64,000 nucleotides of DNA, taken from contig JBAYJA010000001.1 of NCBI GenBank assembly GCA_041665345.1, positions 201,206-265,205 on the forward strand, written 5' to 3'. This stretch comes from Patescibacteria group bacterium. GTDB taxonomy: Bacteria > Patescibacteriota > Patescibacteriia > PEXW01. Shown in pieces: positions 32,236-48,886 of this stretch (position 1 is its first letter; each line of letters begins with the position of its first letter). The position numbers and the translations under genes were made by a program. A model generated the notes under the pieces. The model did not search any database. It saw only the letters and a program-made list of their open reading frames with translations, and was not told where the DNA came from.

Positions 32236-32514
32236 TTAGGAAAAGCAGAAAAGAAGCGTAGCGATCGAAAGCCGCGTGATCGCCTCGGAGCTTGTCCCGT
32301 GTCAGCTTCTTTCACAAAACCCACACCCACCCCAACACCAGGGTATAGCAACCTTGCCCGTTGCCGGCCGTTCGCGTGGAAAGCACCTCGCAACACGTCC
32401 AGAGCAGCAGGCTATGGTTTCTGGTCGCTTGCCAGCTTGGCGAAGTCGGGCTTTCTCCTGTACGATGGAGAACCCCGCCACTGTTGGCGACCCTGGAATA
32501 CTCCGCGTTGTGCT

Positions 32515-33036
32515 ATGAAATGCCCTGCCTGCCATAAGTTGGATACGCGCGTTATGGACTCCCGCCTCATTGAAGACGGGCTGGCCATTCGGCGACGCCG
32601 GGAATGCCCGCGGTGCAGCTTCCGCTTCTCCACGGTGGAGGAAACGGAAATTTTGAACCTCAGCGTCATCAAGCGGGACGGCCGGCACGAGCCGTATAGC
32701 CGGGAAAAGCTAGAAGTGGGGATTCGGCGGTCATTCCAGAAGCTGCCCCAGACCCAGGATGAGTTCAAGCGGCTCATCAACCAGATTGAACGGGACATCC
32801 AAACCTCGGGTCGTACGGAAATCAAGAGTTCAGCCATTGGAGAAATTGTCATGAAGCACCTGAAGCGGGCCAGCCACGTGGCCTACATCCGCTTCGCCTC
32901 GGTCTACCGCTCCTTCACCGACGTGGCTACCTTCCAAGACGAACTGAACGGTTTACTGCGGCCAGTGCGGCAGCGAAAACTTCCAACCCGCAGTGGGTCT
33001 CGCCGCCGAACAGTCGTGCGTCGAAATCGAAAATAA
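32515..33036 (+). CDS. nrdR: transcriptional repressor NrdR
   Basis: MKCPACHKLDTRVMDSR...CPRC zinc ribbon plus an ATP-cone. The track ORF is over-extended upstream. Confidence 0.85.
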   Translation: MKCPACHKLDTRVMDSRLIEDGLAIRRRRECPRCSFRFSTVEETEILNLSVIKRDGRHEPYSREKLEVGIRRSFQKLPQTQDEFKRLINQIERDIQTSGRTEIKSSAIGEIVMKHLKRASHVAYIRFASVYRSFTDVATFQDELNGLLRPVRQRKLPTRSGSRRRTVVRRNRK

Positions 33037-33072: not shown

Positions 33073-36000
33073 ATGCCTAACGCCGCCACCCTCACGCACA
33101 CCTCCACTCAGACTGCAGCACCTGCTCTGCCGCCAGTGCGGTATAGTCCAACAGGTTTGCGGGTGAAGCGGCGGAACACCACCCCCGGGGTCAACCCGTT
33201 GGACCAGGTGGCGTATGAGAAGCGGACTTCAGTCATCAAAAATCCTGATGGCCGGATTGTGCATGAGATAACTGACGTGGAAGTGCCTAAAGGCTGGTCC
33301 CAAGTGGCCACCGATATTTTGGCGCAGAAGTACTTTCGCAAAGCCGGGGTACCGCAGCTGGATGCGGAAGGAAATCCGGTGCTGGATAGTCAGGGCAACC
33401 CCGTGCTGGGGTCAGAGCGAAGTGCGCGGCAGGTCGTGCACCGTTTGGCACACTGCTGGCGCTGGTGGGGTGAGCGCTACGGCTACTTTGCCTCCGCCGA
33501 AGATGCGCAGGCCTACGAAGACGAAATGGCCTTCATTCTCATTAACCAGTTTGGCGCGCCCAATTCCCCCCAGTGGTTCAACACCGGTCTGGCGACGGTC
33601 TACGGCATTACCAGCTCCCCCCAGGGGCACTACTACGTGGTGCCAGAAACCGGCGAGCTCCGGAAGTCCGAAGACGCCTACACCCACCCCCAGCCGCACG
33701 CCTGCTTCATCCAGAGTGTGAAAGATGACCTGGTGAACGAAGGTGGGATTTTTGACCTGATTACCCGCGAAGCGCGGCTTTTCAAGTACGGTTCGGGCAC
33801 GGGCAGCAACTTCTCCACCCTCCGCGGCAAAGGCGAACGCCTGGGCGGCGGCGGCCAGTCCTCGGGCATGATGTCCTTCCTGAAGATTTTTGACCGGGCA
33901 GCCGGAGCCATCAAGAGCGGTGGTACCACGCGTCGGGCAGCCAAGATGGTTATCGTCAACGTGGACCACCCAGACGTGGAAGAGTTCATTACCTGGAAAG
34001 TCCAGGAAGAGCAGAAGGTGGCAGACCTGGTCACGGGTAGCAAAATTAACGCCAAGGCGCTGAATGAGATTATGCGCGTGGCGCACGAAGCCGGCACCAC
34101 CAACGTGCAGCAGTCGCCGGAGCTGAAGCGGGTCATCAAAGACGCGGCACGGTCCAATGTTCCCCTCAACTACGTGGCGCGGGTATTGGATTTGGTTCGC
34201 CAAGGTCGGACCAGCATTGACTTCCCGGTGTTTGACACGCACTTCGAAGGCGAAGCGTACACTACCGTCTCTGGGCAGAACAGCAACAACACCGTGCGCG
34301 TGACCAATGCGTACATGGATGCGGTGCGCGTGAATGCTCCCTGGAACCTCACCAACCGCACCACCGGGGAAGTGGTTCGCACCGTTCCCGCCCGGGACCT
34401 GTGGGATCAAATTTCCTACGCTGCTTGGGCGTGCGCGGATCCGGGCTTGCAGTTTGACACCACGGTGAACGAGTGGCACACCTGCCCGGCTGATGGCCGC
34501 ATTAACGGTTCCAACCCGTGCAGCGAGTACATGTTCATGGATGACACGGCCTGCAACCTGGCTTCCCTCAACCTGGCCAAGTACCTGGACGCGGAAACCG
34601 GCATCTTTGACATTGACGGCTACCGCCACAGCATCCGGCTGTGGACCCTTACCCTGGAACTCTCCGTGCTCATGGCGCAGTTCCCCGGCGCGGAGATTGC
34701 CCGCCGCAGCTACGAGTACCGCACCCTGGGCTTGGGCTACGCCAACCTGGGCACAGTCCTGATGACCATGGGCATTCCCTACGACTCCGACGAAGGCCGC
34801 GCCATTGCCGGTGCCCTCACTGCTGTCATGACCGGGGAATCCTACGCGGCTTCAGCTGAAGTTGCCAGTGTGGTGGGCTCCTTCCCCGCCTACGAGCGCA
34901 ACAAGCGGCACATGCTCCGCGTCATCCGCAACCACCGCCGCGCCGCGTACAATGCGCCGGCAGATGAGTACGAAGGCCTCTCCATTCTCCCCATGGGCAT
35001 TGCGGGCGACGTTTGTCCACCCTACCTCCTGGACGCAGCCAAGCACGCCTGGGACCGCGCCATCACCCTGGGTGAGCAGCATGGCTACCGCAACGCGCAG
35101 ACCACAGTCATTGCCCCCACCGGCACCATTGGCCTGGTCATGGACTGTGACACCACGGGCATTGAGCCAGACTTCGCCATTGTGAAATTCAAGAAGTTGG
35201 CCGGCGGCGGGTTCTTCAAAATCGTCAACCAATCTTTGGACAAAGCCTTGAAGCACTTGGGTTACACCCCAACGCAGGTGCAGGAAATTGAAGCCTACGC
35301 CAAAGGTCACGGCACCCTGGTGGGCTGCCCCACCATCAACCCCGCGGTGCTCCGAGACAAAGGCTTCACCGACGCTGACCTGCAGAAAATTGAAGCCAGC
35401 CTCTCCACGGCTTTTGACCTCCGTTTCGCCTTCACTCCCTTCACTTTGGGTGAGGACATGCTCAAGCGCATTGGCATGACGGACGGGCAAGTGGCAGACC
35501 GCGAATTGAACGTGCTGAAAGCCCTGGGTTTTACCGATGCGGAAGTGGAAGAAGCGAATGCGTACGTCTGCGGCACCATGACCATTGAAGGCGCGCCCCA
35601 CCTGAAGCCAGAGCACTACGCGGTCTTTGACTGCGCCAACAAGTGCGGCACCAAAGGCAAGCGCTACATTCACTACGACGCGCACCTGCAGATGATGGCC
35701 GCAGCCCAGCCCTTCATCTCTGGCGCCATTTCCAAAACCATCAACATGCCCAACGATGCCACGTTGGTGGACATTGCTACGGCCTACGACAAGAGCTGGA
35801 AACTCATGCTGAAAGCCGTTGCCCTGTACCGGGATGGTTCCAAACTTTCCCAACCGCTGAACTCCACCTCAGGTCTGGACGAGCTTGCCCAGGCAGACAC
35901 CGAGGAAGATGAAGTGAACGAGCAAGTGACGCCCCAGCAGGTCTCGGACGCCGTGGCTGCCCAGGCCGTGCGTTCCGCCTTGCCCAACAAGCGCCGGGGC

Positions 36001-36579
36001 TTTGTGCAGAAGGCGTACGTGGGCGGGCACAAGGTCTACCTCCGCACGGGTGAGTACCCCGACGGGAAGTTGGGTGAGATCTTCATTGACATGTACAAAG
36101 AGGGGACGGCGTACCGCAGCTTGCTTTCCATGTTCGCCATTTCCATTTCCAAAGGGTTGCAGTACGGCATTCCCTTGGAAGACTACGTGGATACGTACAC
36201 CTACACAAGATTTGAACCCGCGGGCTCGGTGCAGGGGCACTCCAACGTGAAGATGTCCACCTCCATTCTGGACTACGTCTTCCGCGTGTTGGGCTACGAG
36301 TACCTGGGCCGCAATGACCTGGTGCACGTAAAGCCCGAGGTGAAGGAAGTGGAAGGGAAGACCGCCACCCAGGCCAGCCTGCCCATGGAGATTGCCAAGA
36401 CCACCAGCAATAGCCACGCCATGAAGCAGACCGTCAGCTTTGGCATGGAAGCCAAGGACGAAGCTCGGCAGCAGGGTTTCACCGGTGACCAGTGCGGCGC
36501 CTGCGGCAGCATGAAGATGAAGCGCAACGGCACCTGCATATTATGTCTCGACTGTGGTGAGACGACAGGGTGTAGTTAA
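33073..36579 (+). CDS. nrdJ: ribonucleoside-diphosphate/triphosphate reductase, adenosylcobalamin-dependent (class II, NrdJ-like, 1168 aa)
   Basis: RNR core motifs ([29 protein letters not shown]) and a C-terminal CxxC...CxxC tail. It is a single large gene with no nrdB partner and directly follows nrdR. Assignment to class II rather than class I is an inference. Confidence 0.65.
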
Positions 36580-36725: not shown

Positions 36726-37115
36726 ATGACCGAGATTTTCAACAAGCGAGAAGAGAAGGAGAAACGGAGGAGGCTCCGCAGTGACATGCCACGGGCTGAA
36801 GGGATGCTTTGGGAGCAACTTCGGGGGAAACGCCTTGGGGAGCATCGATTTCGTCGGCAGGTAAGTATTGGGAAGTATGTCGTAGATTTTTACTGCCCAC
36901 GTCTCCGGCTAGTTGTTGAGGTTGATGGCGAGTCACATTTTCAGGAAGGTGCACGTGAGTACGATTGGGAAAGGCAGCAGATAATTGAGAATCTGGGGTT
37001 ACATTTTATTCGCGTAACGAACACGGATGTTTACAGTAATCTCCAAGGAGTTGTTGATGAGATTCTTCATGAGATGAAGCGAATCGAGAATAGAAGAATT
37101 TCTTTCCCGAAATAA
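36726..37115 (+). CDS. DUF559/Vsr-like endonuclease-domain protein
   Basis: YVVDFYCPRLRLVVEVDGESH...ENLGLHFIRVTNTDV is the hallmark of the DUF559 restriction-endonuclease-fold family. Confidence 0.7.
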   Translation: MTEIFNKREEKEKRRRLRSDMPRAEGMLWEQLRGKRLGEHRFRRQVSIGKYVVDFYCPRLRLVVEVDGESHFQEGAREYDWERQQIIENLGLHFIRVTNTDVYSNLQGVVDEILHEMKRIENRRISFPK

Positions 37116-37118
37116 AAA

Positions 37119-37143
37119 AGAGCAACCCGGGTGAGGTTGCTCT
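37119..37143. repeat. conserved terminator hairpin AGAGCAACC-cgggtga-GGTTGCTCT, copy 1 of 4 (others at 37830-37854, 38219-38243, 38630-38653)
   Basis: The copies are nearly identical 25-nt stem-loops, each preceded by an A-run and followed by a T-run, placed after each small gene of the 37.1-39.6 kb cluster. Confidence 0.7.
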
Positions 37144-37751
37144 TAAAGAGATTTTTTGGGGTGACGCTGGGCAAGGAGTCCAACGCCGCCATGAAGGATG
37201 AAACAGAGTATGGGGTAGGCGAGTTGGTACAGACCGTCATCAGGCCGGGGATCATGCTCCCATTGGAGGAAGATTGCTATCAGGCTCACCAGGTAGGCAA
37301 TGCTCCACAAGTACCAGGGGAAGACCCGAGTTTCGGTTTTTGGATCTCGCCACACACCGCGGTAGGTGGGGTAGAAAGACAACGCGATAGGAATTTGCAC
37401 TAAAAGGTTTGCCATCTTTGCGTCGTGGAACAAAAGCCACAGCAGACCAATGAGCGAGCCCAGGAGCAAGATTACTTTTTCCAACTGGTCCAGGGGTCTA
37501 AACTTACCCAGCCGTAATGCCACTACAAATACGTATATGTTCGCCAAGCTGCTGGCAATCGGTAACGCACTTTTAATTATGTCTGAAGTGCTGGTGAGGT
37601 AGGTTGCACAGTTCAGCGTGGTAAGAATGACCCAGAGCATCCAGGTGGCGGGGTTTGGCGTGGCCATTCCTTTGCCCATATTCCGTTTGTAAAGGAGAAA
37701 AGCCGCGACGTGCATTGACGCGGCAATTACTGCAAACGTCATTGCAAGCAC
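37143..37751 (-). CDS. polytopic membrane protein (202 aa, about 6 TM), paralog A
   Basis: Paralogous to 38936-39559, with shared motifs TPNPA.W..W and W.....TE. Confidence 0.55.
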   Translation of the reverse strand: MLAMTFAVIAASMHVAAFLLYKRNMGKGMATPNPATWMLWVILTTLNCATYLTSTSDIIKSALPIASSLANIYVFVVALRLGKFRPLDQLEKVILLLGSLIGLLWLLFHDAKMANLLVQIPIALSFYPTYRGVWRDPKTETRVFPWYLWSIAYLVSLIAIFLQWEHDPRPDDGLYQLAYPILCFILHGGVGLLAQRHPKKSL

Positions 37752-37860
37752 AGGTATCCTTTCTGTTTGCGTTTTTGTTAGTCAGCAAGAATAGCAAGAA
37801 TGTTGGTTTTGTCAACCGAGAAAAGAAAAAGAGCAACCTAGGTGAGGTTGCTCGTAGTGA

Positions 37861-38136
37861 TCAGTTTTTTAAGTTCTGCTGGGGTGTGGTCTCTCTCCAC
37901 AAAACTCGATCTTCATACATGAAGAACAGTGCAACCAGACCTCCGAGAACTACGGCGACGGTTGTGAATGTACTTCGGAGATCATGCACTGCGACGCTAC
38001 CGTTAGTCATTGCGCTCAGGCCTAGGAGGAGCGCACAAATGAGTCCGCTGCCAACAATGCCAAAGAGCACGCTCGCAAATCCGCTAATCAAAATGGAAAT
38101 GTACAGGTTGCCCAAGAATTCAACGAAACGATTCAT
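37861..38136 (-). CDS. small membrane protein (about 91 aa)
   Basis: The ATG at 38136 lies 4 nt after GGAGG. Upstream is TTGACA, 17 nt spacer, TAGATT. The track ORF's TTG start at 38181 is an upstream extension. Confidence 0.5.
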   Translation of the reverse strand: MNRFVEFLGNLYISILISGFASVLFGIVGSGLICALLLGLSAMTNGSVAVHDLRSTFTTVAVVLGGLVALFFMYEDRVLWRETTPQQNLKN

Positions 38137-38260
38137 TATTCCTCCAATTTTTTGTTTTCTTGTAGTCAGTGAATCTAGCAAGAAGTTATTTTCTTGTCAA
38201 TTGCCAAACCAGAAAAAAAGAGCAGCCTGGGTGAGGTTGCTCTATGAAGAAATTTGGATT

Positions 38261-38542
38261 TTAGACCACGATTTCGTTTTTGCAATTGGAATTGACCCAG
38301 AGTAATTTTCCGTTTCCGTCACGGATACAGCGTAAGTAGCGGTATCCCCAGCAGAAGGTTTTCCTATCAGCAGTAAAATCAATTCCCCCCATATTCTGCT
38401 GCACCTTTCCAGAATGTACACGGGCTACTGACTTATTCAGCTCAACGTTCGCTGGGATATGGCTCGTGGGAGAACCAGGCACGAATTCAATGGAGTATGA
38501 TCCTGTATGGGACCAGAGACCAGTTGGATTTACAAACGTCAC
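38261..38542 (-). CDS. hypothetical small protein (93 aa, GTG start)
   Basis: The GTG lies 4 nt after GGGAGG. Upstream is TTGACA, 18 nt spacer, TAGGCT. Confidence 0.5.
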   Translation of the reverse strand: MTFVNPTGLWSHTGSYSIEFVPGSPTSHIPANVELNKSVARVHSGKVQQNMGGIDFTADRKTFCWGYRYLRCIRDGNGKLLWVNSNCKNEIVV

Positions 38543-38672
38543 ATTTCCTCCCTGTCATTGGGTTAATACTGTTTGTTTGAATGAGCCTAGCAAAGAGTGA
38601 GAAGGTGTGTCAAATTCATGAGTAGAAAAAGAGCAACCCGGGTGAGTTGCTCTTAAGAAATTTTCCGCGAAT

Positions 38673-38858
38673 CTACGAAATCTCGTATATAAGACCGCAC
38701 TTGTCACATTGAGACACTTCGATAGCCCCTTCATGCGTTTGCATCGCCGATTGTTGCGGAGGGTGAACCTTAACCCAATTTCGCTCTTGAATAATAGTGC
38801 CGCCGCATGCAGTTGGCTTGCCATTCTCCATTCGGAGTACAGTGCATTTTTTTTCCAT
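38673..38858 (-). CDS. small zinc-ribbon-like protein (about 61 aa)
   Basis: Cys pairs C..CGG...CDKCG. Upstream is TTGACA, 17 nt spacer, TAAATT. Confidence 0.45.
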   Translation of the reverse strand: MEKKCTVLRMENGKPTACGGTIIQERNWVKVHPPQQSAMQTHEGAIEVSQCDKCGLIYEIS

Positions 38859-38935
38859 ATTTCTCAACCTTTCTTTTGGGTTTCAAAGGAATTTACCAAA
38901 ATGTAATTCTTGTGTCAAGGGTAGAAAAAACCGCT

Positions 38936-39559
38936 TCAGAGGGAAGCGGTTTGCGTTAGAGCATTCTTTGGTTTTTTGATGAAGATCACCAGGGTGGCAA
39001 TGCTATTGAAGAGCACGCCCAGGCCTGGGTAGAGGAGAGCCAGGAATTGGCCATCCCAGCGGAGCAGGACAATGCAGAATGTCAGTGCATGGCAGACGGT
39101 CCAGAGTACCCACGGTAGGGGACGTTCGGTGTGCTTTCCACCCCACACACTACTCACCATCGTGAAGAAGGAAATGGCAATTGCCATTTGGATGAACACA
39201 TTGCCGTACCAGGCATTGCCAGAGAACACCCAGCAGAGAATTGCACCAACCGCAATGCAAATAGCAATTTTATCGCGCTTCGTGACCTGGCGCATTCGGC
39301 CTTTCCACAGACAGTAGCTGAACATCAGCGTGCAGTTAAAGGTGGAGACGACGCTGTTAATGGCCTTCACCCAATCGTGCGTGCCGGTTTGGTAGGTGAG
39401 TAAATTCACCACGGTTACCACAAACCAAATGGCCCAGGCTGCCGGGTTGGGGGTAATCCCACCTCGTCGGTCTTGGTAAAAGTAGAAACCTATTGCAGTA
39501 AGGTTTACCAGAATGAGTACACCACCAAGGAGCAAGCTTAGACTTCGATGTTCTTCCAT
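38936..39559 (-). CDS. polytopic membrane protein (207 aa), paralog B of 37143-37751
   Basis: ITPNPAAWAIWFVVTVVNLLTY matches ATPNPATWMLWVILTTLNCATY in paralog A. Confidence 0.55.
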   Translation of the reverse strand: MEEHRSLSLLLGGVLILVNLTAIGFYFYQDRRGGITPNPAAWAIWFVVTVVNLLTYQTGTHDWVKAINSVVSTFNCTLMFSYCLWKGRMRQVTKRDKIAICIAVGAILCWVFSGNAWYGNVFIQMAIAISFFTMVSSVWGGKHTERPLPWVLWTVCHALTFCIVLLRWDGQFLALLYPGLGVLFNSIATLVIFIKKPKNALTQTASL

Positions 39560-39565
39560 ATAAAC

Positions 39566-40234
39566 CTACTTCCTCCAGAACTTCGCCATGTAGGCAAAAT
39601 CGCATAGCGGGGTAAGGGTGACGTGCATGTGCACTTCCCGAGCCAGCTGTTCGATCATGAGTTTACTATAGGAAAGGGAGAACATACCATCGTCACTCAC
39701 GATTGCTCCTTGCAGCCGGTCATGCCGCGCATTCTTCCAGCCTTCCTCGGTGTACATTTGCACGCGCTTGGCAATTGCCCGGAGCGTGGGTGGATAGAAG
39801 TCAGCGTAGACAACCGGCGCCACACGTTGCATTTCTCGCAGTGCACCAATGTGGTCGTCCAGCGTTCCTAGGGTACCCATATTCATCACCACAGCGTCAA
39901 AGGTATTTTTGGCAAAGGGCAGCTGCATCACATCGCCCTGCAGGAAGTGGACATTTTGCAATCCCCGCTGCAGCAGATATTCTGTCGCCCGCGCAACCAG
40001 GATCGGGTGCAGTTCAATGCCCACTACTTTCTGGTTGTACGCCGAGAGTGTAAACGCGTCATGCCCCAACCCTGCGCCGGCAACCAGTACTCGTTGGCCT
40101 TGAATGTACTTTGCAAAGAATGCATTTTCAGCTTCAAAGAATTGTGCACGAATTTGTGATTTTTTAGGATCGTGCGCTGCTTCTAAGCGGGCAATGGCTA
40201 TCCCACTACTATTCAGGTAATCAAGAGCCATAGC
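39566..40234 (-). CDS. class I SAM-dependent methyltransferase (about 222 aa)
   Basis: Motif I VLVAGAGLGHDAFTL. The true ATG at 40234 lies 5 nt after AAGGAGG. Confidence 0.7.
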   Translation of the reverse strand, partial: AMALDYLNSSGIAIARLEAAHDPKKSQIRAQFFEAENAFFAKYIQGQRVLVAGAGLGHDAFTLSAYNQKVVGIELHPILVARATEYLLQRGLQNVHFLQGDVMQLPFAKNTFDAVVMNMGTLGTLDDHIGALREMQRVAPVVYADFYPPTLRAIAKRVQMYTEEGWKNARHDRLQGAIVSDDGMFSLSYSKLMIEQLAREVHMHVTLTPLCDFAYMAKFWRK

Positions 40235-40359
40235 TCCCTCCTTTATGAAATTGTGAAAGATCGGTAATTGGCTACAGTACAATACCCGCGCAGGTTCGTC
40301 AATAAGAAAAACCGCCACAGGGGTACTGGGCGGTTCATATGATGATGATTTTGGAATCC

Positions 40360-40680
40360 TTACGTTTTCGGTTCAACGTGCATTTTAGTGATTGCGCTTT
40401 TTACTCGCCGCACCCCGAGAAAGAGGCTGAGGGTGTAAATGACGAATGCAGCGTCGCTCGTTAGTATCTCAAACATGGTCTTCGGGGCACTTTCAAAAAG
40501 TCTTTGCATCATGACAAGAACCACCACACTCATGATGGCGGAAATGAAGAATTCCAGAACCATGAGCTGCGCTATCCAAAGTCTTTTCTTTTTCGTCTTC
40601 TGGGCTTGCCTCACAAAGAATACTTTTCCTGTGCTAGAAAAGAGCAAGACGCCGAAGAGGAGGAGAATATTCCAGAACAT
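40360..40680 (-). CDS. small membrane protein (106 aa)
   Basis: Hydrophobic, no recognisable family. Confidence 0.4.
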   Translation of the reverse strand: MFWNILLLFGVLLFSSTGKVFFVRQAQKTKKKRLWIAQLMVLEFFISAIMSVVVLVMMQRLFESAPKTMFEILTSDAAFVIYTLSLFLGVRRVKSAITKMHVEPKT

Positions 40681-40796
40681 TTTTCCTTCCTTTTTTGGAT
40701 TTTTCTGTTCTGTGCAACATACCGCGCTTCTATTTGTACGTCAATAGCGGATTGCAAAAACCGCCTAGGATGTACCCAGGCGGCAAGAGTGATGAT

Positions 40797-41120
40797 TTAG
40801 TTTTTTGTGACCTGATACGTTGGCTCATGGAGAGCAATGATGCCTTTTAGTCCACCCCCTATGAAACCACAGCCGATTAGCAACAGCTGGAAGTTTGTTG
40901 TTGGCGGGACACCATTCGAGAGAAAAATGAGACCCCCGAAGACAAATTCTAAGATGCTAGCCCCGCCAATCGCACATACAATGGGGTATGCAATTTTACA
41001 AATCCAGATGCCGCGCGCATTCCCCGAGCGGTATGCCCGCTGCAGGAGGGGCCGAAAACCAAATCTTGCCCAGAGTAGGCTCAAAAGAAAAATTACACTC
41101 GTAGAAATGAAAAGTACCAT
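40797..41120 (-). CDS. small membrane protein (107 aa)
   Basis: Hydrophobic, 3 predicted TM. Confidence 0.4.
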   Translation of the reverse strand: MVLFISTSVIFLLSLLWARFGFRPLLQRAYRSGNARGIWICKIAYPIVCAIGGASILEFVFGGLIFLSNGVPPTTNFQLLLIGCGFIGGGLKGIIALHEPTYQVTKN

Positions 41121-41144
41121 TTTGCTTCTCCTGGTTTACAATAT

Positions 41145-41714
41145 TTATACCAAGCTCAGGCCAAAGTAGTAGTGGTAGGCGTTATCCTCTAATACTATTG
41201 GATTTCGTGAGATAGTCTCGAAACCTTTGAACCGCGTAAAACTATTCAGCCGTTCAGCAGGCGTTAGAGTGTTTTGGTAGAACCAATATTCTCCTGTTTC
41301 GATTGGCTCAGACGTATCGAGACCGCGGCCACCTTTGAACGTCTTGCTTTGGTATGCGTGCGTCAGGACTCGTTTCAGGAATGGGATTACCTCCGGTGGG
41401 TACACACCACCGTAGGCCATCATCCATACTGGAATGTCGTCTTGGAGAATAGTCGTACTCCCCGCACTTTTCCTAGTCCCAGGATTTGCAATAAAAATAT
41501 CGCGGAGGTACAGTCCGTTCTTTTTGTACTCGTACCCTTTGTACCCCGGCATGCCTGCCACGGGTTGTGCCTGCGTGTTGGGATTGACCCAACCCTGGAG
41601 CATGGCCTCAAAGAAGAAGGCCTCAATTTCCTTCATGTCAACGATCATAGAACACCTCACATTTTTGTAGTTTTTTCGTTCCCACAAGTTTATACCACTC
41701 AGAGTGTGTGTCAA
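41145..41714 (-). CDS. hypothetical protein (up to 189 aa)
   Basis: A long ORF with coding-like composition. The start is uncertain, and an internal Met at about 41648 is plausible. Confidence 0.4.
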   Translation of the reverse strand: MTHTLSGINLWERKNYKNVRCSMIVDMKEIEAFFFEAMLQGWVNPNTQAQPVAGMPGYKGYEYKKNGLYLRDIFIANPGTRKSAGSTTILQDDIPVWMMAYGGVYPPEVIPFLKRVLTHAYQSKTFKGGRGLDTSEPIETGEYWFYQNTLTPAERLNSFTRFKGFETISRNPIVLEDNAYHYYFGLSLV

Positions 41715-41761
41715 ATGAGAAAAGCCACGTCCGGGGGCGTGGCTTTTGTAGGGTACAAGTT

Positions 41762-42253
41762 TTAGTCGTCTGACCCGCAGTCGGAGGAATCCGAGCTATC
41801 TGATGCGTCATCTGAATCGTTGTTGTCAGTAGAGTCTGATTGCTCTACTGAGTCGCCACGTTCCCGATCAACCTCGTCGTGTTGATTCACGGGTTGATCA
41901 TCTTGATCCAGTGCTCCAGCGATAGCTCCTAATGTTGTGTCTCCGGTGAGACCGGTGGCCATAGCGGCGGTCAGGCCGTCACCCCCAGCAGCCTCGGCAA
42001 TGATGGCCGCGGCAAGTGGGTCACTGTTGGGACTTCGGCTATCATTGTGGATGGGGCTGTATGGCTCAGGATCGCGATGCTTCGTAGGTGTTGCCATTCT
42101 GTTGGCAAACTTTCCGCTACTCGCTCCAGGGCGAATTGCATGCGCTGGCCAGTTGATACGACCCGTGCCGTGGCAGCTCGGGCAATCTTTTTCCTGTCGC
42201 CACAGAAAGCCACAGCGTTTGTAGCCTTTCCCATTACAATTTTGACATTCCAT
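41762..42253 (-). CDS. DnaJ-type CxxCxGxG zinc-finger protein with a highly acidic Asp/Ser-rich C-terminal tail
   Basis: CQNCNGKGYKRCG...CPSCHGTG, then ...DSDDASDSSDSSDCGSDD. Confidence 0.45.
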   Translation of the reverse strand: MECQNCNGKGYKRCGFLWRQEKDCPSCHGTGRINWPAHAIRPGASSGKFANRMATPTKHRDPEPYSPIHNDSRSPNSDPLAAAIIAEAAGGDGLTAAMATGLTGDTTLGAIAGALDQDDQPVNQHDEVDRERGDSVEQSDSTDNNDSDDASDSSDSSDCGSDD

Positions 42254-42371
42254 TGGTCTCTCCTCTTTATTCGTGTGCCTTGATTTTTGTTAACAAAAGA
42301 GTGTATCTGAAAATGGAAAAAAAGTCAAGCCCAGCACGAAAAACCCCCGCACAGTGCAGGGGGTTGCTGGC

Positions 42372-42647
42372 TTATAAAACACCTCTCGTCTTTCTACTCA
42401 GCCAGTCAAAAGTACGGCACATTCTGCGCCCACCGCCTATGCTCACCCCCAGAACCAGTAGGCTTGCGATGATCAGGAATATGCTTCCCGCAAGATCTCC
42501 GGTGGTTTCGGCTCGGGGGACGTAGAATATACAGCCGGTGATTATGCCAAGGCTGCCAATGAACACGAAGAAGCCATTGATGAGCCGTGCAAATGATCGG
42601 AATTCTGGTTCGGTATCAAACCTTTGAACGAGCAATGCGGGTGCCAT
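42372..42647 (-). CDS. small membrane protein (91 aa)
   Basis: Two hydrophobic helices. Confidence 0.35.
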   Translation of the reverse strand: MAPALLVQRFDTEPEFRSFARLINGFFVFIGSLGIITGCIFYVPRAETTGDLAGSIFLIIASLLVLGVSIGGGRRMCRTFDWLSRKTRGVL

Positions 42648-42782
42648 TTTTCCTCCTCTAGTGAAAGTATTTTCTCCATTCTACGTCCTTTGGTAGGCAT
42701 GTCAACTTGGGCATTGGTCTGTTGACGGTTCCACAGCGTAGCGCTAGGCTTTGAGCAAATTGCTTTTTTCCAAGGAGGAGAC

Positions 42783-43286
42783 ATGTTTGGTAGGTGGTTG
42801 AGATCCAAAAAAGGGATGCGGGTTGTTGCCGCGGCAGGTGCAGTACCTCAGCCCGAGAAGCTCCCAACGGCGCACGATGAGGTAAAAATCGTGCAACAAT
42901 CAGAGATGCTACGGATTTATAGTTGTGGGCATCGTGGCAGCAAGGAATACGCTCTGGATATTTACGGTCAGGTAAGTCAGCGCATTACCGACACTTCGGA
43001 TTGTCCGATGTGCCGAGTAGCGAGAATAAAAAAACACACAATCAGATGCGCTGCTTGCGGGCTGCCTATTTTTCCGGGTGAGGGTGTGGCGCTCTACGCT
43101 TTTGACGGTGAACTTTTTGACCGAAACAAATGCACTTTTGTGAAGGAGAGTGTGCTTGGGTGCATGCGTTGGGACTGCTGCCCATCTGGTGCATTCTTCG
43201 CGGGCAATTGGTCGGAACAAGGTTTTGTACCGCGCTTTGCGGGGAACAACACCATGGGCGAGCAGTGTGTGCAAGACAATGAGTAG
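42783..43286 (+). CDS. Cys-rich hypothetical protein (167 aa)
   Basis: An AAGGAGG ribosome-binding site. It shares its promoter and leader module with the next gene. Confidence 0.45.
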   Translation: MFGRWLRSKKGMRVVAAAGAVPQPEKLPTAHDEVKIVQQSEMLRIYSCGHRGSKEYALDIYGQVSQRITDTSDCPMCRVARIKKHTIRCAACGLPIFPGEGVALYAFDGELFDRNKCTFVKESVLGCMRWDCCPSGAFFAGNWSEQGFVPRFAGNNTMGEQCVQDNE

Positions 43287-43401
43287 CACCTTTCTACAAG
43301 ACAGGCACGGAAGTCCGGCCTGTCTTTTTCTATTATATTGACGCCAGAAATGAAGCGCGCTAGGCTTTGAGCAAATTGTTTTTTCAAAGGAGAGTTTATC
43401 T

Positions 43402-43956
43402 ATGCGCACATTCTTTGCCGTGCTCATTGCTACTTGGTTTGGCTCAGGATTCATTCCTCGGATTCCCAAGGTTACCACCCGCGGTTTTGCGGGGACGTGG
43501 GGTTCGCTGGCAGCACTGCCACTGTGCATTTGTACACTTTGGCTATGTCATCAACTTCCACTTCTCGACGGTTGGATGCTGTACGCCAGCATAGTAGGAA
43601 GTGTCATGCTCCTCGGTGCCTGGTCCCTGGAACCCGCCATGGCCTGGCTCAGCGGCTGGCTGGTGCGGCATCGGCAGCGTGACCGGAAAATGTTCCACGA
43701 CCAGTACGAAGTGGTCATTGATGAGGTCTTTGGGATGCTCATTAGCTGCGCCCCGTTGTACTTCCTCCCGGACGTGCCACTGTGGCTGGGTCTTGGATTG
43801 AGCTTCCTCTGCTTCCGGATTTTTGACGGCACCAAGCCCTGGCCAGTGCGGTACTTTGACCAGCAGAAATCACCCCTGAGCATCATTTGGGATGATGGGG
43901 TTGCTGGACTTATGGCGGCAGCAGTCGTCACCATAATTTTACAAGTTTTTTTCTAA
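43402..43956 (+). CDS. pgpA: phosphatidylglycerophosphatase A
   Basis: PgpA family motifs WFGSGF...GTWGSLAALP...VIDEVFGM. Confidence 0.75.
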   Translation: MRTFFAVLIATWFGSGFIPRIPKVTTRGFAGTWGSLAALPLCICTLWLCHQLPLLDGWMLYASIVGSVMLLGAWSLEPAMAWLSGWLVRHRQRDRKMFHDQYEVVIDEVFGMLISCAPLYFLPDVPLWLGLGLSFLCFRIFDGTKPWPVRYFDQQKSPLSIIWDDGVAGLMAAAVVTIILQVFF

Positions 43957-44037
43957 GCACAACTTACAGGCTGGGGAACCAGCCTGTTTTCATAACCATG
44001 AGAAAAAAGACCTTCAGCGTGGGCTGAAGGTCAGAGA

Positions 44038-44265
44038 CTAGTGGACACCCTCCGGGTGCTTACGGATGTACTGGATAAGGAAGAACAGGCCAATGCCAGC
44101 ACAGCCACCAAGCAGTGGACCAAGCCAGTTCCAGTAGGTACCAAGGCCAGGCTCCAGAAATGTGAGAATGCCGACCGTCATCCAGCCAATGAGGATCCCG
44201 ATGGCAGAGAAAATAACGGCTAGCACAAGGAGCGTCAAAAGGTTCTTGGATGACGCTGGTTGCAT
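44038..44265 (-). CDS. small membrane protein (75 aa)
   Basis: A GGAGG sits 6 nt before the ATG. Two TM helices. Confidence 0.45.
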   Translation of the reverse strand: MQPASSKNLLTLLVLAVIFSAIGILIGWMTVGILTFLEPGLGTYWNWLGPLLGGCAGIGLFFLIQYIRKHPEGVH

Positions 44266-45082: not shown

Positions 45083-45673
45083 ATGCCAGCTGTCAAACGA
45101 AAAAAAGCACCGAAGACTGTTCCCAAACTCCAGCCTTTTCCCGGGGGTTTGACCATTTGTTACGTAGGCAACGGAAAGGGGAAAACGACGGCTGCGGTAG
45201 GAGTGGCCGTGCGCGCGGCCGGGGACGGGAAACGTGTCCTCTTCTTTCAATTTTTCAAAAGTCCAGAGTGGCCATCTGGGGAACGGGAGAGTTTGCGGAA
45301 GCTGGGCATCCAGGTGGAAGTACATGGCAAGGGGTTTGTGGGCATTTGGGGGGACAAGAAACCCAAGGCGGAGCACCAAGCTGCAGCACGCGCGGCGTTG
45401 GGGAAAGCCAAGCGCCTACTCATTGCAAAGAAGTTTGATGTCATTATTTTGGATGAACTCATTTCCTGCGTGGAGGAAGGGTTGCTGAGCGTGAAGGATG
45501 TTGTTGCACTCATCCAAGCGAAACGTGATAAAGCAAAAAATCTCCACCTCGTGCTCACCGGGCACACCAAATATTCAGCGATTCTCAAAGTCTGTGATGT
45601 GGTGTCGGAAATGCAAATGGTGAAGCATCCGTTCTACCAAGGTTTCTTGGCGGTGAAGGGGATTGATTATTGA
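45083..45673 (+). CDS. corrinoid adenosyltransferase (CobA/CobO/BtuR family)
   Basis: P-loop ICYVGNGKGKTTAAVG and full-length similarity to the CobA_CobO_BtuR family. The real start is the internal Met, since the track ORF is over-extended. Confidence 0.7.
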   Translation: MPAVKRKKAPKTVPKLQPFPGGLTICYVGNGKGKTTAAVGVAVRAAGDGKRVLFFQFFKSPEWPSGERESLRKLGIQVEVHGKGFVGIWGDKKPKAEHQAAARAALGKAKRLLIAKKFDVIILDELISCVEEGLLSVKDVVALIQAKRDKAKNLHLVLTGHTKYSAILKVCDVVSEMQMVKHPFYQGFLAVKGIDY

Positions 45674-46087
45674 AGGGGAATAAGCGAGTTAGCAAATTGG
45701 CGAGCTTGCGAGTTGAGATGAGGGTAGAGCCGCCCGCCCCGACATCCCGTTGTGGGATCGTCGGGGTAGAGATCTTGGAGGTATAGTCCTTGAACTAAAG
45801 ATACAAGAACGGTCTACGCTTCTGATTAGCAGGGTAGGGTGGGGCTTTTATGCCCCGTCCACACAAGTTTGTTACATGGCTATTTCGAAGGCCGAGGCAT
45901 GAAAGCCTCGGCTACCCACCACAGGGTAGCCGCGAGCCCTCGCTCGCGGCTGAGGGGCAGAACAACTTCCAACTAAGGCCAAAGCGAGGGCTTTGGCCTA
46001 CCCGCGTTTGAAAAAACTAAGGTTTTGTTTTCTATTTACTCTGCCGTAGTCTTTGCTAGACTAAAGGCAACAACACAAGGAGGAAAA

Positions 46088-46195
46088 ATGCAAATTGTAG
46101 CTTGGATTGTGGTAGCCTGCGTGGCAGCAATTATTGTCACTTATGCTGGAGAGGGAGTCTGGCCCTGGCAGATACCAAGAAAGAAAAGGTAGCGT
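46088..46195 (+). CDS. 35-aa hydrophobic peptide (MQIVAWIVVACVAAIIVTYAGEGVWPWQIPRKKR)
   Basis: AAGGAGG sits 5 nt before the ATG. A terminator ggtagcgtaagctacc + TTTTTT follows immediately. Too short for the ORF track. Confidence 0.35.
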
Positions 46196-46263
46196 AAGCT
46201 ACCTTTTTTGTATGTGAAAGAGACCAGCAGGGTTGCTGGTCTCTAAAAAAGAATGGTTAGGCA

Positions 46264-46815
46264 TTAATTTTTGCTTTTCAGAATCGAGTCCGCTTCAGCA
46301 AGGACCGGACTGCTGGGAGTGCGTTCTTGGTCTTCAATTTTGGCAATGAAGGCTTGCGCAATGCCATACAGCAGGAGGAGCGAAAAATCATCGAGGTTGA
46401 GGTCTTGTTGCAAAGCGGCAAGTGCACCCCACCAATCTTTGCACGTAGAACGAATTTTTGAACGGACGGTATTCGGATCCCATCGACCCTTCGATCCTTT
46501 TCTAAATACTGACTTGATATCCGCACGGGTAACGAGTACCGAGTAATGTGCATATTCTTGCTGAAGTGGCCTGAGGAGCAGGACGAGAAACGCGGTTTGC
46601 GCTAGCACTTTACGTTTTTCCTCCTCTGACATATCCCTTGCCTTTTTTGGAGTAGCGGCCGGTGTTTTCCCCCTCACGTTATCCACCAGCAAGCAGGCGA
46701 TGGTGTCAAAAGTCTCCTGCTGCATAATGCCAAACAAGAAGCTGTCCAGCTTGATGGTTGGATTTTTCAAAAATTGTACTGTTTCTTCAACTGATTCCTT
46801 GGAAACCTGTAACAT
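46264..46815 (-). CDS. hypothetical protein (183 aa), paralog 1
   Basis: Paralogous to 46926-47537. It is followed by the hairpin agagaccagcagggttgctggtctct. Confidence 0.5.
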   Translation of the reverse strand: MLQVSKESVEETVQFLKNPTIKLDSFLFGIMQQETFDTIACLLVDNVRGKTPAATPKKARDMSEEEKRKVLAQTAFLVLLLRPLQQEYAHYSVLVTRADIKSVFRKGSKGRWDPNTVRSKIRSTCKDWWGALAALQQDLNLDDFSLLLLYGIAQAFIAKIEDQERTPSSPVLAEADSILKSKN

Positions 46816-46925
46816 TTTTCCTCACTTTTTTGGTGCTGTGTTTATCAAGAGAAAGTAGGTCAGGGTTAGGCTTTTGTCAAGTGAATATGAAAAGAGACCA
46901 GCGGGGTTGCTGGTCTCCAATGAAC

Positions 46926-47537
46926 TTATACGGCTTGAGGCCCAAGGATGTCCCGTAGCTGCCGCTCAATAGAAGATTCATTCTCGCGTGTTTCGTCTTC
47001 TACTTTTTCTGCAATTTTGGATATGAAGGCCTGGGCGACTATGAATACAGAGAATTGTGATTCTTCATGAAGTACGCTCGCACACTGTTGAATGGTTACG
47101 TACCATTCTATATTAGCCTCCAGAATCTCCTGCAGCAGCACTGTAGGCTCCCACTCGCCTGCAATCCCACGATCGAAAACGGTGTTAATATCCTGCCGGG
47201 AAATTACCGGTAAACGTCCATTCCTTTGGACTTTGATAGGCAGGAGAATTAAGGCGAGCAATCTTGCCTGACCTGAAATTTCTTCGTGCTTTTCGCTCAA
47301 GCTATTCCCAGGAATATGGTCCATGTTCCCGCCACGGGTGAGAAGGTTTGCAACAGTACCATAGGCATCCTCAGTCGTGAGATTTTGCAGAAAACTTAGT
47401 AAGTTCGCGGATATACACGACGAAACGCCTTTTACAAATGCCTCATTGCTAATAGGGACCATTATTTGCTCCTTGAATTTGTAAATTATTTGTGTTAATT
47501 GACAGGAAAAAATAGCAAATTTTGTCATCTCTGTCAA
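46926..47537 (-). CDS. hypothetical protein (203 aa), paralog 2
   Basis: Shared segments include ...VFDRGIAGEWEPTVL... against ...VFRKGSKGRWDPNTV... and IVAQAFISKIAEKVED against GIAQAFIAKIEDQERT. It is followed by a near-identical hairpin at 46893-46918. Confidence 0.5.
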   Translation of the reverse strand: MTEMTKFAIFSCQLTQIIYKFKEQIMVPISNEAFVKGVSSCISANLLSFLQNLTTEDAYGTVANLLTRGGNMDHIPGNSLSEKHEEISGQARLLALILLPIKVQRNGRLPVISRQDINTVFDRGIAGEWEPTVLLQEILEANIEWYVTIQQCASVLHEESQFSVFIVAQAFISKIAEKVEDETRENESSIERQLRDILGPQAV

Positions 47538-47556
47538 GCCGTGCTACACTCCTAAG

Positions 47557-47890
47557 GCTTAACAACTAGCAGGTAATCTGGTGCGGAGCACCCCGAGCGA
47601 GATCTTGAGCAAAGCGAAAGATTGAGTCGAAGGGTACGACAATTCCAGAACGGTCCCGCCACGGTATTTCACCCTTTTGGGGTGATGAGTCCGACACCTG
47701 GTCTGAAGACAACAGACAACCATCAACAAACTACTACCGACCAGAATTGACCTCAAAAAGCTATCTGGTTGAAAGTTACTCGTTGTATGTTGTTCGTTGC
47801 CGTCAGGCCGAAGACAAATCCTTCGGGGAAAAGGTCGAACATGGATGGGTGTATCCTACGACTGCCTGAGGTCGTAGGTATTTTTTCGTC
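47557..47890 (+). ncRNA. probable cobalamin (AdoCbl) riboswitch with a terminator-type expression platform
   Basis: The promoter is TTGTCA, 17 nt spacer, TACACT at 47522-47550. The leader carries cgAAGGGtAc...AATTCC...CGGtCCCGCCACgGTA, which resembles the conserved AAnnGGGAA, GGUGnAAnUCC and B12-box elements. It ends in the hairpin cctacgac-tgcctga-ggtcgtagg + TTTTTT (47855-47887) just before a DUF4430-like gene. Confidence 0.5.
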
Positions 47891-47908
47891 ACTAAAGCAC
47901 ATGCACGT

Positions 47909-48313
47909 ATGAAACATCTTCAACGTTTCCGCATCTTGGGTCTTGGGCTTTTCGCCGTCATTCTTTTGGCAGCCTGTACAGCCGTTAACACCAATTCCAC
48001 TTCAAATCCAAATACGAATGTCGCGAATCAGAATGTCAATGGTACAGTCAGTAACACCAATACGTCTGCAGCTAGCTACCTCTACCCGGGACAGGAGGGG
48101 AAGAATGCCCTGGAACTTTTGAAGGCAAAGTACCCAAACACCACCACCAAAACGTCTACGGCAGGGGAGTACGTCACTGGGATTGATGGGAAGGAAGCAG
48201 GCGCAACGGAGTACTGGCAGTTCTTGGTGAATGGCACAGAAGCACCCGTGGGCGCTGGGGCGTACAAAACCAAAGCCACCGATACTATTGAGTGGAAACT
48301 CGTTTCGTTCTAG
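47909..48313 (+). CDS. lipoprotein with a DUF4430/transcobalamin-like C-terminal domain (putative B12-binding)
   Basis: Lipobox LLAAC, an N/T-rich linker, and the C-terminal YWQFLVNG...GAYKTKATDTIEWKLVSF. Confidence 0.55.
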   Translation: MKHLQRFRILGLGLFAVILLAACTAVNTNSTSNPNTNVANQNVNGTVSNTNTSAASYLYPGQEGKNALELLKAKYPNTTTKTSTAGEYVTGIDGKEAGATEYWQFLVNGTEAPVGAGAYKTKATDTIEWKLVSF

Positions 48314-48325
48314 GCTACATCTACT

Positions 48326-48886
48326 ATGACCTTTCGCCAACACCTGACCCCCAAGAATTTCATTATCCTAGGACTCATTGCCTTTGCGGCAGTGTCTCGG
48401 TTCTTGCCCCATCCCATGAACTTTGCGCCGGTAGCTGCCGTGGCCTTGTTCAGCGGGGTGTACCTGGAGAAGCGCGCGTCGCTGTTCGTACCTTTGGTGG
48501 CCATGATTGTGTCTGATATTTTCATTGGCTTCCACAACGTCATTGCGTTTACCTGGGGCTCCATGGTGTTGGTGGGGGTTATTGGTCTCCTTGTCCGGCG
48601 ACGGAAGAATGTGTGGACCGTAGCTGGCGGAGCTCTGCTGGGCTCAGTGCTCTTCTTCTTGATTACCAACGCCGCGGTGTGGTGGGTTGGTCATGGAGAT
48701 TTTTACCCCATGAACTTCTCCGGGTTGCTTCTGGCCTACGAGTACGGACTGCCTTTTTTCCGCAACACATTGCTGGGTGACCTCTTCTACGTGGGTGCGC
48801 TATTCGGTGTAGCTGAATTGGCTTTTGCTTGGTTGCGCGCAAGGCAGGAGCGGGGAGTACGGCAATCGGTTGCGGAAAATGTATAG
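48326..48886 (+). CDS. small polytopic membrane protein, putative vitamin (cobalamin) uptake S-component-like transporter
   Basis: 186 aa with 5-6 TM helices. It follows the DUF4430 gene in the same riboswitch-controlled unit. The function is inferred from context only. Confidence 0.35.
   Translation: MTFRQHLTPKNFIILGLIAFAAVSRFLPHPMNFAPVAAVALFSGVYLEKRASLFVPLVAMIVSDIFIGFHNVIAFTWGSMVLVGVIGLLVRRRKNVWTVAGGALLGSVLFFLITNAAVWWVGHGDFYPMNFSGLLLAYEYGLPFFRNTLLGDLFYVGALFGVAELAFAWLRARQERGVRQSVAENV

Follow-up and report, generated by a model that had tools for sequence, protein, structure and literature searches.

We examined an array of five small genes on the minus strand of a 64,000-nt stretch of chromosomal DNA from an ultra-small Patescibacteria group bacterium known from a metagenome-assembled genome (GCA_041665345.1, contig JBAYJA010000001.1, positions 201,206 to 265,205 of the forward strand). 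This whole 64-kb stretch is referred to as the window, and coordinates are those of the window unless another contig is named. A first-pass annotation had described five small minus-strand genes, each with a Shine-Dalgarno site, at 37119-39560, and all five open reading frames (ORFs) and their Shine-Dalgarno sites were found there in the sequence (Table 1). The outer two, named 7-TM-A (gene 1) and 7-TM-B (gene 5), encode paralogous membrane proteins; between them lie payload genes 2 and 3 (g2 and g3) and gene 4, a Cys-rich gene (ZnR). The array is the right-hand third of a longer variable island. Its G+C content is 43-49%, compared with 58-60% in the adjacent nrdJ, so that the lower GC reported relative to the flanks was reproduced. 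Independent ENA, JGI/NCBI (GCA_041660445.1) and Logan assemblies all contain the same array without any difference, which rules out an assembly artefact; the ENA copy lies on a 1.08-Mb contig (ERZ27249449 k141_1145919). Three array variants were compared, those of the window and of the relatives L004 and L008, the last being a 3.6-kb contig (CAZBMC010000089.1) retrieved by scanning a genome collection for the hairpin described below. Two further relatives, L005 and L040, carry 7-TM-A.

Table 1. Features of the array and of the island around it, in window coordinates
Feature	Position	Strand	Description
Whole variable island	37100..44037	-	~6.9 kb, between a 75-aa gene (44038-44265) and the DUF559/nrdJ flank
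Hairpin H, copy 1	37119..37143	-	predicted intrinsic terminator of 7-TM-A; stop codon TAA (37143-37145) overlaps the first stem base
7-TM-A gene (gene 1)	37143..37751	-	202 aa, uncharacterised membrane protein; resident conserved gene adjoining nrdJ
7-TM-A predicted promoter	37788..37815	-	TTGACA, 16 nt, TG-TATTCT; conserved in L004, L005 and L040
Hairpin H, copy 2	37830..37854	-	after gene 2
Payload gene 2	37861..38136	-	91 aa, hydrophobic orphan, ~3 membrane segments
Gene 2 predicted promoter and 5' untranslated region (UTR)	38172..38200	-	from promoter scan
Hairpin H, copy 3	38219..38243	-	after gene 3; one A-C mismatch in the stem
Payload gene 3	38261..38542	-	93 aa, soluble orphan protein
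Gene 3 putative promoter	38584..38613	-	TTGACA (38613-38608), 18 nt, TG-c-TAGGCT; below scan threshold
Hairpin H, copy 4	38630..38653	-	after the Cys-rich gene; 24-nt variant with a 1-nt deletion; 7-TM-A 3' coding-tail remnant upstream
Payload gene 4 (Cys-rich, ZnR)	38673..38858	-	61 aa, zinc-ribbon-like orphan, C-x13-C ... C-x2-C
Gene 4 predicted promoter	38890..38918	-	TTGACA, 17 nt, TG-TAAATT; orthologous in L004 and L008
Hairpin T2	38928..38952	-	predicted terminator of 7-TM-B; second boundary type, differs from H
7-TM-B gene (gene 5)	38936..39559	-	207 aa, paralog of 7-TM-A; no promoter of its own in the window
Class-I S-adenosylmethionine methyltransferase gene (MT)	39566..40231	-	221 aa from the ATG at 40231
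T2-like terminator and promoter	40274..40335	-	GAACCGCC...GGCGGTTTTT, then TTGACG-17-TACTGT; predicted methyltransferase/7-TM-B promoter at 40302-40274

Directly after each of the first four genes stands a copy of one hairpin, H, which reads AGAGCAACC-TCACCYR-GGTTGCTCT on the minus strand and is followed by a T-run. The copies had been described as 25 nt long, which is true of three, while the last has 24 nt. A search allowing up to three mismatches recovered three copies compared with 0.00 expected from shuffles, and a repeat finder joined all four into one 37-nt family with 70-86% identity. The degenerate form of the motif is GAGCARY-N2-3-AYYYRGGYTGCTC. A terminator scan listed three of the four, leaving out the copy at 38219-38243 with its stem mismatch. 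Each copy consists of a G+C-rich stem of 9-11 bp, perfect except for the A-C mismatch in copy 3, and a T-run. Folding of the RNA gave -10.7 to -15.9 kcal/mol, with z-scores of -3.2 to -6.5. No Rfam family matched in the array at gathering or permissive thresholds. Among ten copies the hairpin cores are 77-100% identical while synonymous sites of the adjacent genes differ at pS 0.52-0.56, which indicates that H is under constraint. The fifth gene ends in a different hairpin, T2, as had been noted. A second family of boundary sequences, ...CC(C)CTG-GCGGTTTTTYCT..., stands directly before a TTGAC -35 box at 38928-38952 and 40306-40335 of the window and at 7606-7633 of L004.

Every gene had been credited with its own TTGACA box; this is correct for genes 1, 2 and 4, whose promoters follow the consensus TTGACA-N16/17-(TG)TAnnnT, and for gene 3, where the -10 box, read by eye and from the alignment, is weaker (TGCTAGGCT). 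Gene 5 lacks a TTGACA box. Only 7 nt separate its ATG from the stop codon of the methyltransferase gene, and therefore the methyltransferase and 7-TM-B are probably co-transcribed as one operon from the unit's TTGACG -35 box at 40302-40297. In L008, 7-TM-B has its own TTGACA promoter and no methyltransferase upstream, and the methyltransferase gene is absent from both L004 and L008. At three junctions of the window, H and its T-run are followed 8-20 nt further on by TTGACA-N16-18-(TG)TAnnnT; the fourth junction combines T2 with a promoter. In the direction of reading, every H copy except the last has a TTGACA promoter within the next 20 nt. The promoters are, however, not near-identical as first described, but near-consensus sigma-70 sites with clear homology in some pairs only. 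From this arrangement we infer that the units may be transcribed independently of each other.

Payload genes and 7-TM paralogs

The middle three genes were reported as mutually unrelated, and the comparison agrees: one protein is hydrophobic (gene 2) and two are soluble (genes 3 and 4), and the payloads are related neither to one another nor to the 7-TM genes. The payloads showed no homology to each other beyond a marginal similarity of two Cys-rich proteins (E 0.009). The idea that the payloads are degraded 7-TM sequence was rejected, since Smith-Waterman scores against codon shuffles all gave z < 1.3. Pfam, NCBIfam, PHROGs and PADLOC returned nothing for the five array proteins, while the methyltransferase and the DUF559 neighbour did match, and no homolog of the payloads was present among 5.8 billion proteins. 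Searches with the Cys-rich protein and with the 75-aa protein of the flank returned the query itself only. The gene 2 protein was found in the source organism only, and exact-protein look-ups of genes 2 and 3 led to the same context only. The single-sequence structure model of gene 3 is unreliable (pLDDT 39). The payloads are probably envelope or small accessory proteins under diversifying ecological pressure.

One payload gene is under purifying selection. The Cys-rich gene has an ortholog in L004 that is 90% identical, and the dN/dS of 0.06 between window and L004 establishes it as a real gene. The GenBank gene calls for the independent assembly (GCA_041660445.1, JBAZWI010000016.1) omit both the Cys-rich gene and gene 3, which lie within 38261-38858, as well as a 107-aa membrane-protein gene further upstream (40797-41120). 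The Cys-rich gene starts with ATGG-A8-TG, the A8 run occupying 38847-38854 just after the ATG. Its counterpart in L008 has an A7 run (~2110-2125 of that contig) and, later on, a differing G-run (~2012-2022), giving two frameshifts, which could reflect homopolymer phase variation, a pseudogene or an assembly error.

7-TM-A and 7-TM-B are 30% identical (E 2e-26). They had been called paralogous six-helix proteins; the paralogy stands, but the alignment-based AlphaFold model has seven helices (pLDDT 86, pTM 0.83), with a predicted 3+1+3 arrangement like that of KDELR or SWEET. In Foldseek the model matched KDELR at E 5e-4 to 3e-3 with TM-scores of 0.54-0.62, followed by SWEET and cystinosin, and a fold of the KDEL-receptor/SWEET/PQ-loop type is predicted. 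No Pfam or NCBIfam model matched the 7-TM proteins, and by sequence they do not fall into MtN3_slv, PQ-loop or ER_lumen_recept. The family comprises 2149 cluster representatives at E <= 1e-3, has no name and no Pfam model, and includes a few members fused to SET or GtrA domains. The dN/dS of 7-TM-A between window and L004 is 0.09.

Descent of the hairpins and arrays of relatives

The source of H became apparent in L005 and L040, whose 7-TM-A proteins are 68-71% identical. Directly after the 7-TM-A stop codon both carry AGAGCGGACC-CAyyC-GGATCCGCTCT, a hairpin that shares its loop and outer stem with H. The two differ at stem positions 6-8, where both arms have changed (AAC/GTT against GGA/TCC) and still pair; this comparison was made by inspection. 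An automatic count was blurred by a one-column alignment shift. Since an orthologous terminator with compensatory changes occupies the same place, H appears to be the native Rho-independent terminator of 7-TM-A. In L005 the hairpin is common to 7-TM-A and the convergent nrdJ. No hairpin repeats were found in L005 or L040, and the neighbouring small genes there have their own promoters and unique terminators. In the clade of the window, copies of H have arisen downstream of unrelated genes and brought with them the final ~17 nt of the 7-TM-A coding sequence, and these remnants of the 7-TM-A tail sit after the payloads' own stop codons. In L004, CAAAAAAATCTTTGTAA and the hairpin form a 43-nt repeat, 93% identical, that is present at the 3' end of 7-TM-A and after the stop codon of the Cys-rich gene. 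L008 carries T2 twice: one copy follows 7-TM-B, the other an unrelated 84-aa gene, where a piece of the 7-TM-B tail comes with it. T2 thus seems to have spread in the same way as H.

The tail remnants also bear on the idea that H is a small mobile or REP-like palindrome which inserted after several genes, the array being coincidental to an insertion preference. H is indeed a short, conserved, extragenic palindrome, and unrelated single matches to the degenerate pattern exist in other metagenomes. All four copies, however, lie in one array and in one orientation with none elsewhere in the 64 kb, where H is thus not the general terminator that a check for ubiquity might have revealed. Each copy has a 7-TM coding tail upstream and a promoter downstream, and the window encodes neither RAYT nor Y1 transposase. 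The genome-collection scan returned one related array (L008) and two unrelated single matches, a metagenome scan returned 29 single matches, none encoding a related protein, and viral contigs gave 0 matches; none of the 31 single matches elsewhere encodes related proteins. We regard this explanation as extremely unlikely.

The three variants differ in gene content. In the window the order is MT-7TMB, T2, ZnR, H, g3, H, g2, H, 7TMA, H. L004 has ZnR, H, 7TMA, H, and L008 has 7TMB, T2, ZnR, H, 84 aa, T2, 97 aa, H, 78 aa, H, 114 aa, H, where the lengths denote the products of unrelated genes and the array abuts the end of nrdJ directly. The interval matching the whole island is ~1 kb in L004 and ~2.6 kb in L008. 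Flanking sequences are far more alike: nrdJ of the window and of L004 is 91% identical in DNA and 98% in protein, and the flanks of L004 and L008 are 96.5% identical. The comparison of relatives that had been proposed thus shows presence, absence and shuffling of cassettes between flanks that are 91-96% identical. L008 was binned as an uncultured Gammaproteobacteria metagenome-assembled genome, but its nrdJ end and flank genes are 93-96% identical to Patescibacteria, and consequently it is very likely misbinned.

Several junctions place the apparent breakpoints inside the hairpin/-35 module. L004 and L008 run parallel without interruption across ZnR, H and TTGACAAAAATA, beyond which they diverge. 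The ZnR-7TMA spacer of L004 is chimeric, its left part corresponding to that of the ZnR/g3 spacer of the window and its right part to that of the window's g2/7TMA spacer. The 7-TM-B cassette of L008 is bounded on both sides by a 13-nt repeat, GCGGTTTYTTTCT. Up to the ATG, the promoter and UTR of g2 in the window share 87% identity with the module that drives the unrelated 114-aa gene of L008. The hairpin and promoter after the 97-aa gene of L008 match the g2/7TMA junction of the window, which indicates that the order of modules has been shuffled. The position of the breakpoints varies, one falling after -35+6 nt and another within a T-run.

These comparisons also speak to a passive origin, in which a 7-TM unit was tandemly duplicated, its coding parts were later replaced illegitimately and the hairpins are leftovers. 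7-TM-A and 7-TM-B are tandem paralogs, the modules hold remnants of the 7-TM 3' coding tail, the start of gene 3 (GTGACGTTTG) resembles codons 4-7 of 7-TM-A, and concerted evolution leaves no strong signal, all of which such a relic would account for. Yet L004 and L008 differ by five cassettes in spite of their 96.5% identical flanks, which points to recent, repeated events; moreover, the junctions coincide with modules, the module order is shuffled between window and L008, and the payload interiors hold no 7-TM trace. We therefore consider a duplication relic unlikely. Between window and L004, dS of the island genes is ~0.9-1.0, about twice the 0.47 of adjacent nrdJ (37143-38858 against 34528-36579). 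The island genes may have exchanged alleles with more distant lineages, or their codons may be less constrained.

Proposed gene turnover between repeated modules

Taken together, repeats of 7-TM origin bound a fast-changing accessory locus in which the sets of cassettes differ between relatives. The first-pass proposal of a hypervariable locus with heterogeneous payloads between repeated boundary elements is borne out by the comparison of L004, L008 and the window. The explanation that we believe to be the probable one is a chromosomal hyperplastic locus with repeat-mediated turnover of cassettes. Such a locus would be built of single-gene units, each with a promoter, a Shine-Dalgarno site, a small orphan gene and an intrinsic terminator. 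H, the terminator of the resident 7-TM gene, would have been copied to unrelated 3' ends together with the ~17-nt coding end, the T-run and a -35 box, and T2 would have spread likewise from the paralogous 7-TM-B. The resulting composite terminator/promoter repeats of 45-110 nt would insulate and express each payload. The same repeats could serve as short homology tracts for RecA-type recombination that would delete, duplicate, reorder or swap genes, either between sites of one chromosome or with DNA imported from relatives (the window contains comEC and dprA). We infer that recombination between repeats would be the cause of the turnover.

Several points weigh against this explanation. The strongly repeated core is short, ~37-60 nt, which is near the lower limit for efficient RecA recombination. 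Similarity of most promoter parts is 0.65-0.78, within the range of shuffled controls (mean 0.54, maximum 0.75), and may stem from shared sigma-70 or UTR constraints instead of common descent. The breakpoint evidence is anecdotal, coming from three array variants. Modules are only slightly more similar within a genome (0.82) than between orthologous positions (0.77-0.79), so that ongoing gene conversion is not strongly indicated. The count of H covers 64 kb of a ~1.08-Mb genome, and H might occur elsewhere in it. The model also leaves the first acquisition of flanking modules by new payloads without explanation.

The annotation had called the locus integron-like while reporting neither integrase nor attC. 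Neither was found by us: no integrase, recombinase or transposase domain turned up among the called genes and large ORFs of the 64-kb window, and no attC-type sites were found in it. The integron likeness itself does not go beyond loose analogy, given the cassettes' own promoters and the terminator-derived boundary. In a literal version, H would fold single-stranded like attC and an enzyme encoded elsewhere would move circular cassettes. This version would fit boundaries that are hairpins, single-gene cassettes in one orientation and presence or absence of cassettes exactly between hairpins, and a distant 7-TM homolog does adjoin a large serine recombinase and a Y1 transposase in L006, a distant relative, and in L007. 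We nevertheless judge it very improbable, for H is an intrinsic terminator lacking RYYYAAC/GTTRRRY cores and extrahelical bases, and simply the ancestral one of 7-TM, and there is no single fixed breakpoint position.

Alternatively, the module may be kept by a common protein or RNA factor that co-regulates a family of mini-operons, the variation being incidental. Conservation of the hairpin cores, their CACCC loop included, clearly exceeds that of synonymous sites, and the promoters have an extended -10 and a CTGACTAA-like motif in common. On the other hand, conservation is confined to standard promoter and terminator features, Rfam has no match, and coding-tail remnants and cassette turnover are left unexplained. 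We give this proposal little credence as a full account; co-regulation is, however, compatible with repeat-mediated turnover rather than an alternative to it.

Neighbourhood, comparable systems and significance

The island lies among housekeeping genes, with nrdJ, nrdR, ftsZ and ftsA on one side and cobA/btuR, DUF4430 and DUF6580 on the other; parAB, topA, dprA, mfd, comEC and glmS are found further out in the window. Both flanks are cobalamin-related, namely the cobA/btuR adenosyltransferase, DUF4430 and DUF6580 genes (45209-48886) and the B12-dependent ribonucleotide reductase gene nrdJ with its TSCPD domain (33073-36579). The rest of the island, 39566-44037, is ~4.4 kb without a counterpart in L004 and L008. 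It contains pgpA, a 167-aa gene, the methyltransferase gene and genes for small proteins of 91, 163, 167, 107 and 106 aa (three of them membrane proteins), and most of its genes have their own promoters and unique terminators.

Genes resembling selfish nucleases recur next to the locus. Between nrdJ and the array, a DUF559 gene (Vsr-like endonuclease fold) occupies 36726-37115 on the plus strand. Its place is taken in L004 by an unrelated gene that weakly matches DUF4760 and is empty in L005 and L008, and in L006 a T5orf172/GIY-YIG-like gene follows the 7-TM gene. The nrd genes are classic homing targets. NrdR (32299-33036) was called with 245 aa compared with 149 aa in L005, reflecting either an N- or C-terminal extension or a miscalled start site.

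Genes for natural transformation are present, as judged from ComEC and DprA in the window. DprA is encoded at 7385-8494. ComEC appears as two overlapping ORFs, with a Competence domain (54536-55960) and a Lactamase_B domain (55938-56825), and comEC is possibly split. A giant ORF of 2357 aa (19919-26992) has a product that on a partial JGI contig carries T4SS_pilin and Big_5 domains and, for this reason, is probably surface- or pilus-associated. Two adjacent unannotated genes, 46264-46815 (183 aa) and 46926-47462 (178 aa), are paralogs with 28% identity (E 3e-13).

The closest known parallel is found in T4-like phages, whose hyperplastic regions contain small ORFans flanked by promoter-early stem-loop motifs (PeSLs), repeated composites of a strong sigma-70 promoter and a terminator stem-loop that span ~100 bp (Arbiol et al. 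2010 PMC2839356; Comeau et al. 2014 PMC4122927). There are ~50 PeSLs per genome; indels and replacements between close relatives end in the motifs, and nrd genes are among the plastic loci associated with them (PMC2839356, PMC4122927). Experiments have documented them as points of homologous exchange and as expression signals for which no dedicated recombinase is needed (PMC2839356, PMC4122927). The present locus likewise combines a predicted sigma-70-type promoter and a stable stem-loop terminator in one intergenic motif. Conservation extends beyond the consensus elements in the 37-nt family, the 43-nt repeat of L004 and one 87% identical pair, the other promoter parts being at background. 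It also flanks ORFans in a region that varies between relatives, with indel endpoints in the motif in the three variants. In contrast to PeSLs, it lies in a bacterial chromosome, between cobA/btuR and nrdJ-nrdR-ftsZ-ftsA, and has 4-5 copies at one locus instead of ~50 per phage genome. Its stem-loop stands upstream of the -35 box and can be traced to the terminator and coding tail of a resident gene. By analogy, it seems to work like a PeSL without being a member of the phage family, since it is chromosomal and gave no match to PHROG or to phage nucleotide and protein databases.

Other systems resemble the locus in part. Morons of temperate phages are single genes with their own promoter and factor-independent terminator and deviant G+C (PMC3594210). 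The array too holds autonomous units of promoter, gene and terminator with a differing G+C, inserted between other genes; unlike morons, they have no prophage context, having housekeeping neighbours and no phage families, and the terminator is common to the units. With integron cassettes the locus shares a one-orientation array of single genes, imperfect palindromes between them and variable content. It is not an integron: IntI, attI and Pc are missing from the window, the cassettes bring promoters of their own, and the palindromes are intrinsic terminators, not attC sites. Clostridia CAG-217 offer an example of integrase-free hypervariable islands of small ORFs, the acrIIA22 islands, which lie between purF and radC (Forsberg et al. 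2021, PMC8545432). They are alike in being short small-ORF islands with near-identical flanks, one anchor gene kept and no recombinase found, but that work describes no repeated boundary module and derives payloads from phages, whereas the payloads here have no detectable source.

Exchange in conserved flanks, or an expression module in front of variable genes, also recalls two bacterial systems. Neisseria minimal mobile elements exchange genes by homologous recombination in conserved flanks after natural transformation, and in Mycoplasma vlp/vsp loci conserved 5' expression modules front variable genes. The present locus differs in that those systems use whole flanking genes or site-specific inversion and slippage, and their payloads are known surface antigens.

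A more far-reaching possibility, which we consider rather doubtful, is that bacteria of the candidate phyla radiation (CPR) possess a recombinase-free chromosomal platform, in which terminator-promoter copies would act as docking sites next to nrdJ where a competent population captures, expresses and exchanges orphan small proteins. If true, this platform would be the cellular counterpart of the phage PeSL mini-circles. If recognition instead involved the hairpin folded as single-stranded DNA, whether by an enzyme or in the course of transformation, this would represent a new kind of site-directed cassette capture.

The locus points to a large unnamed 7-TM family with a predicted KDEL-receptor/SWEET-like fold, and the absence of the Cys-rich gene, which is under purifying selection, from the GenBank gene calls means that at least one short real gene has been overlooked. 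Patescibacteria have tiny genomes rich in unknown small proteins, and how they exchange accessory genes without obvious mobile elements is poorly understood. The use of a resident gene's terminator and promoter as handles for expression and recombination would be a simple and testable route of gene turnover, and the locus would extend a mechanism of T4-like phages to a cellular chromosome.

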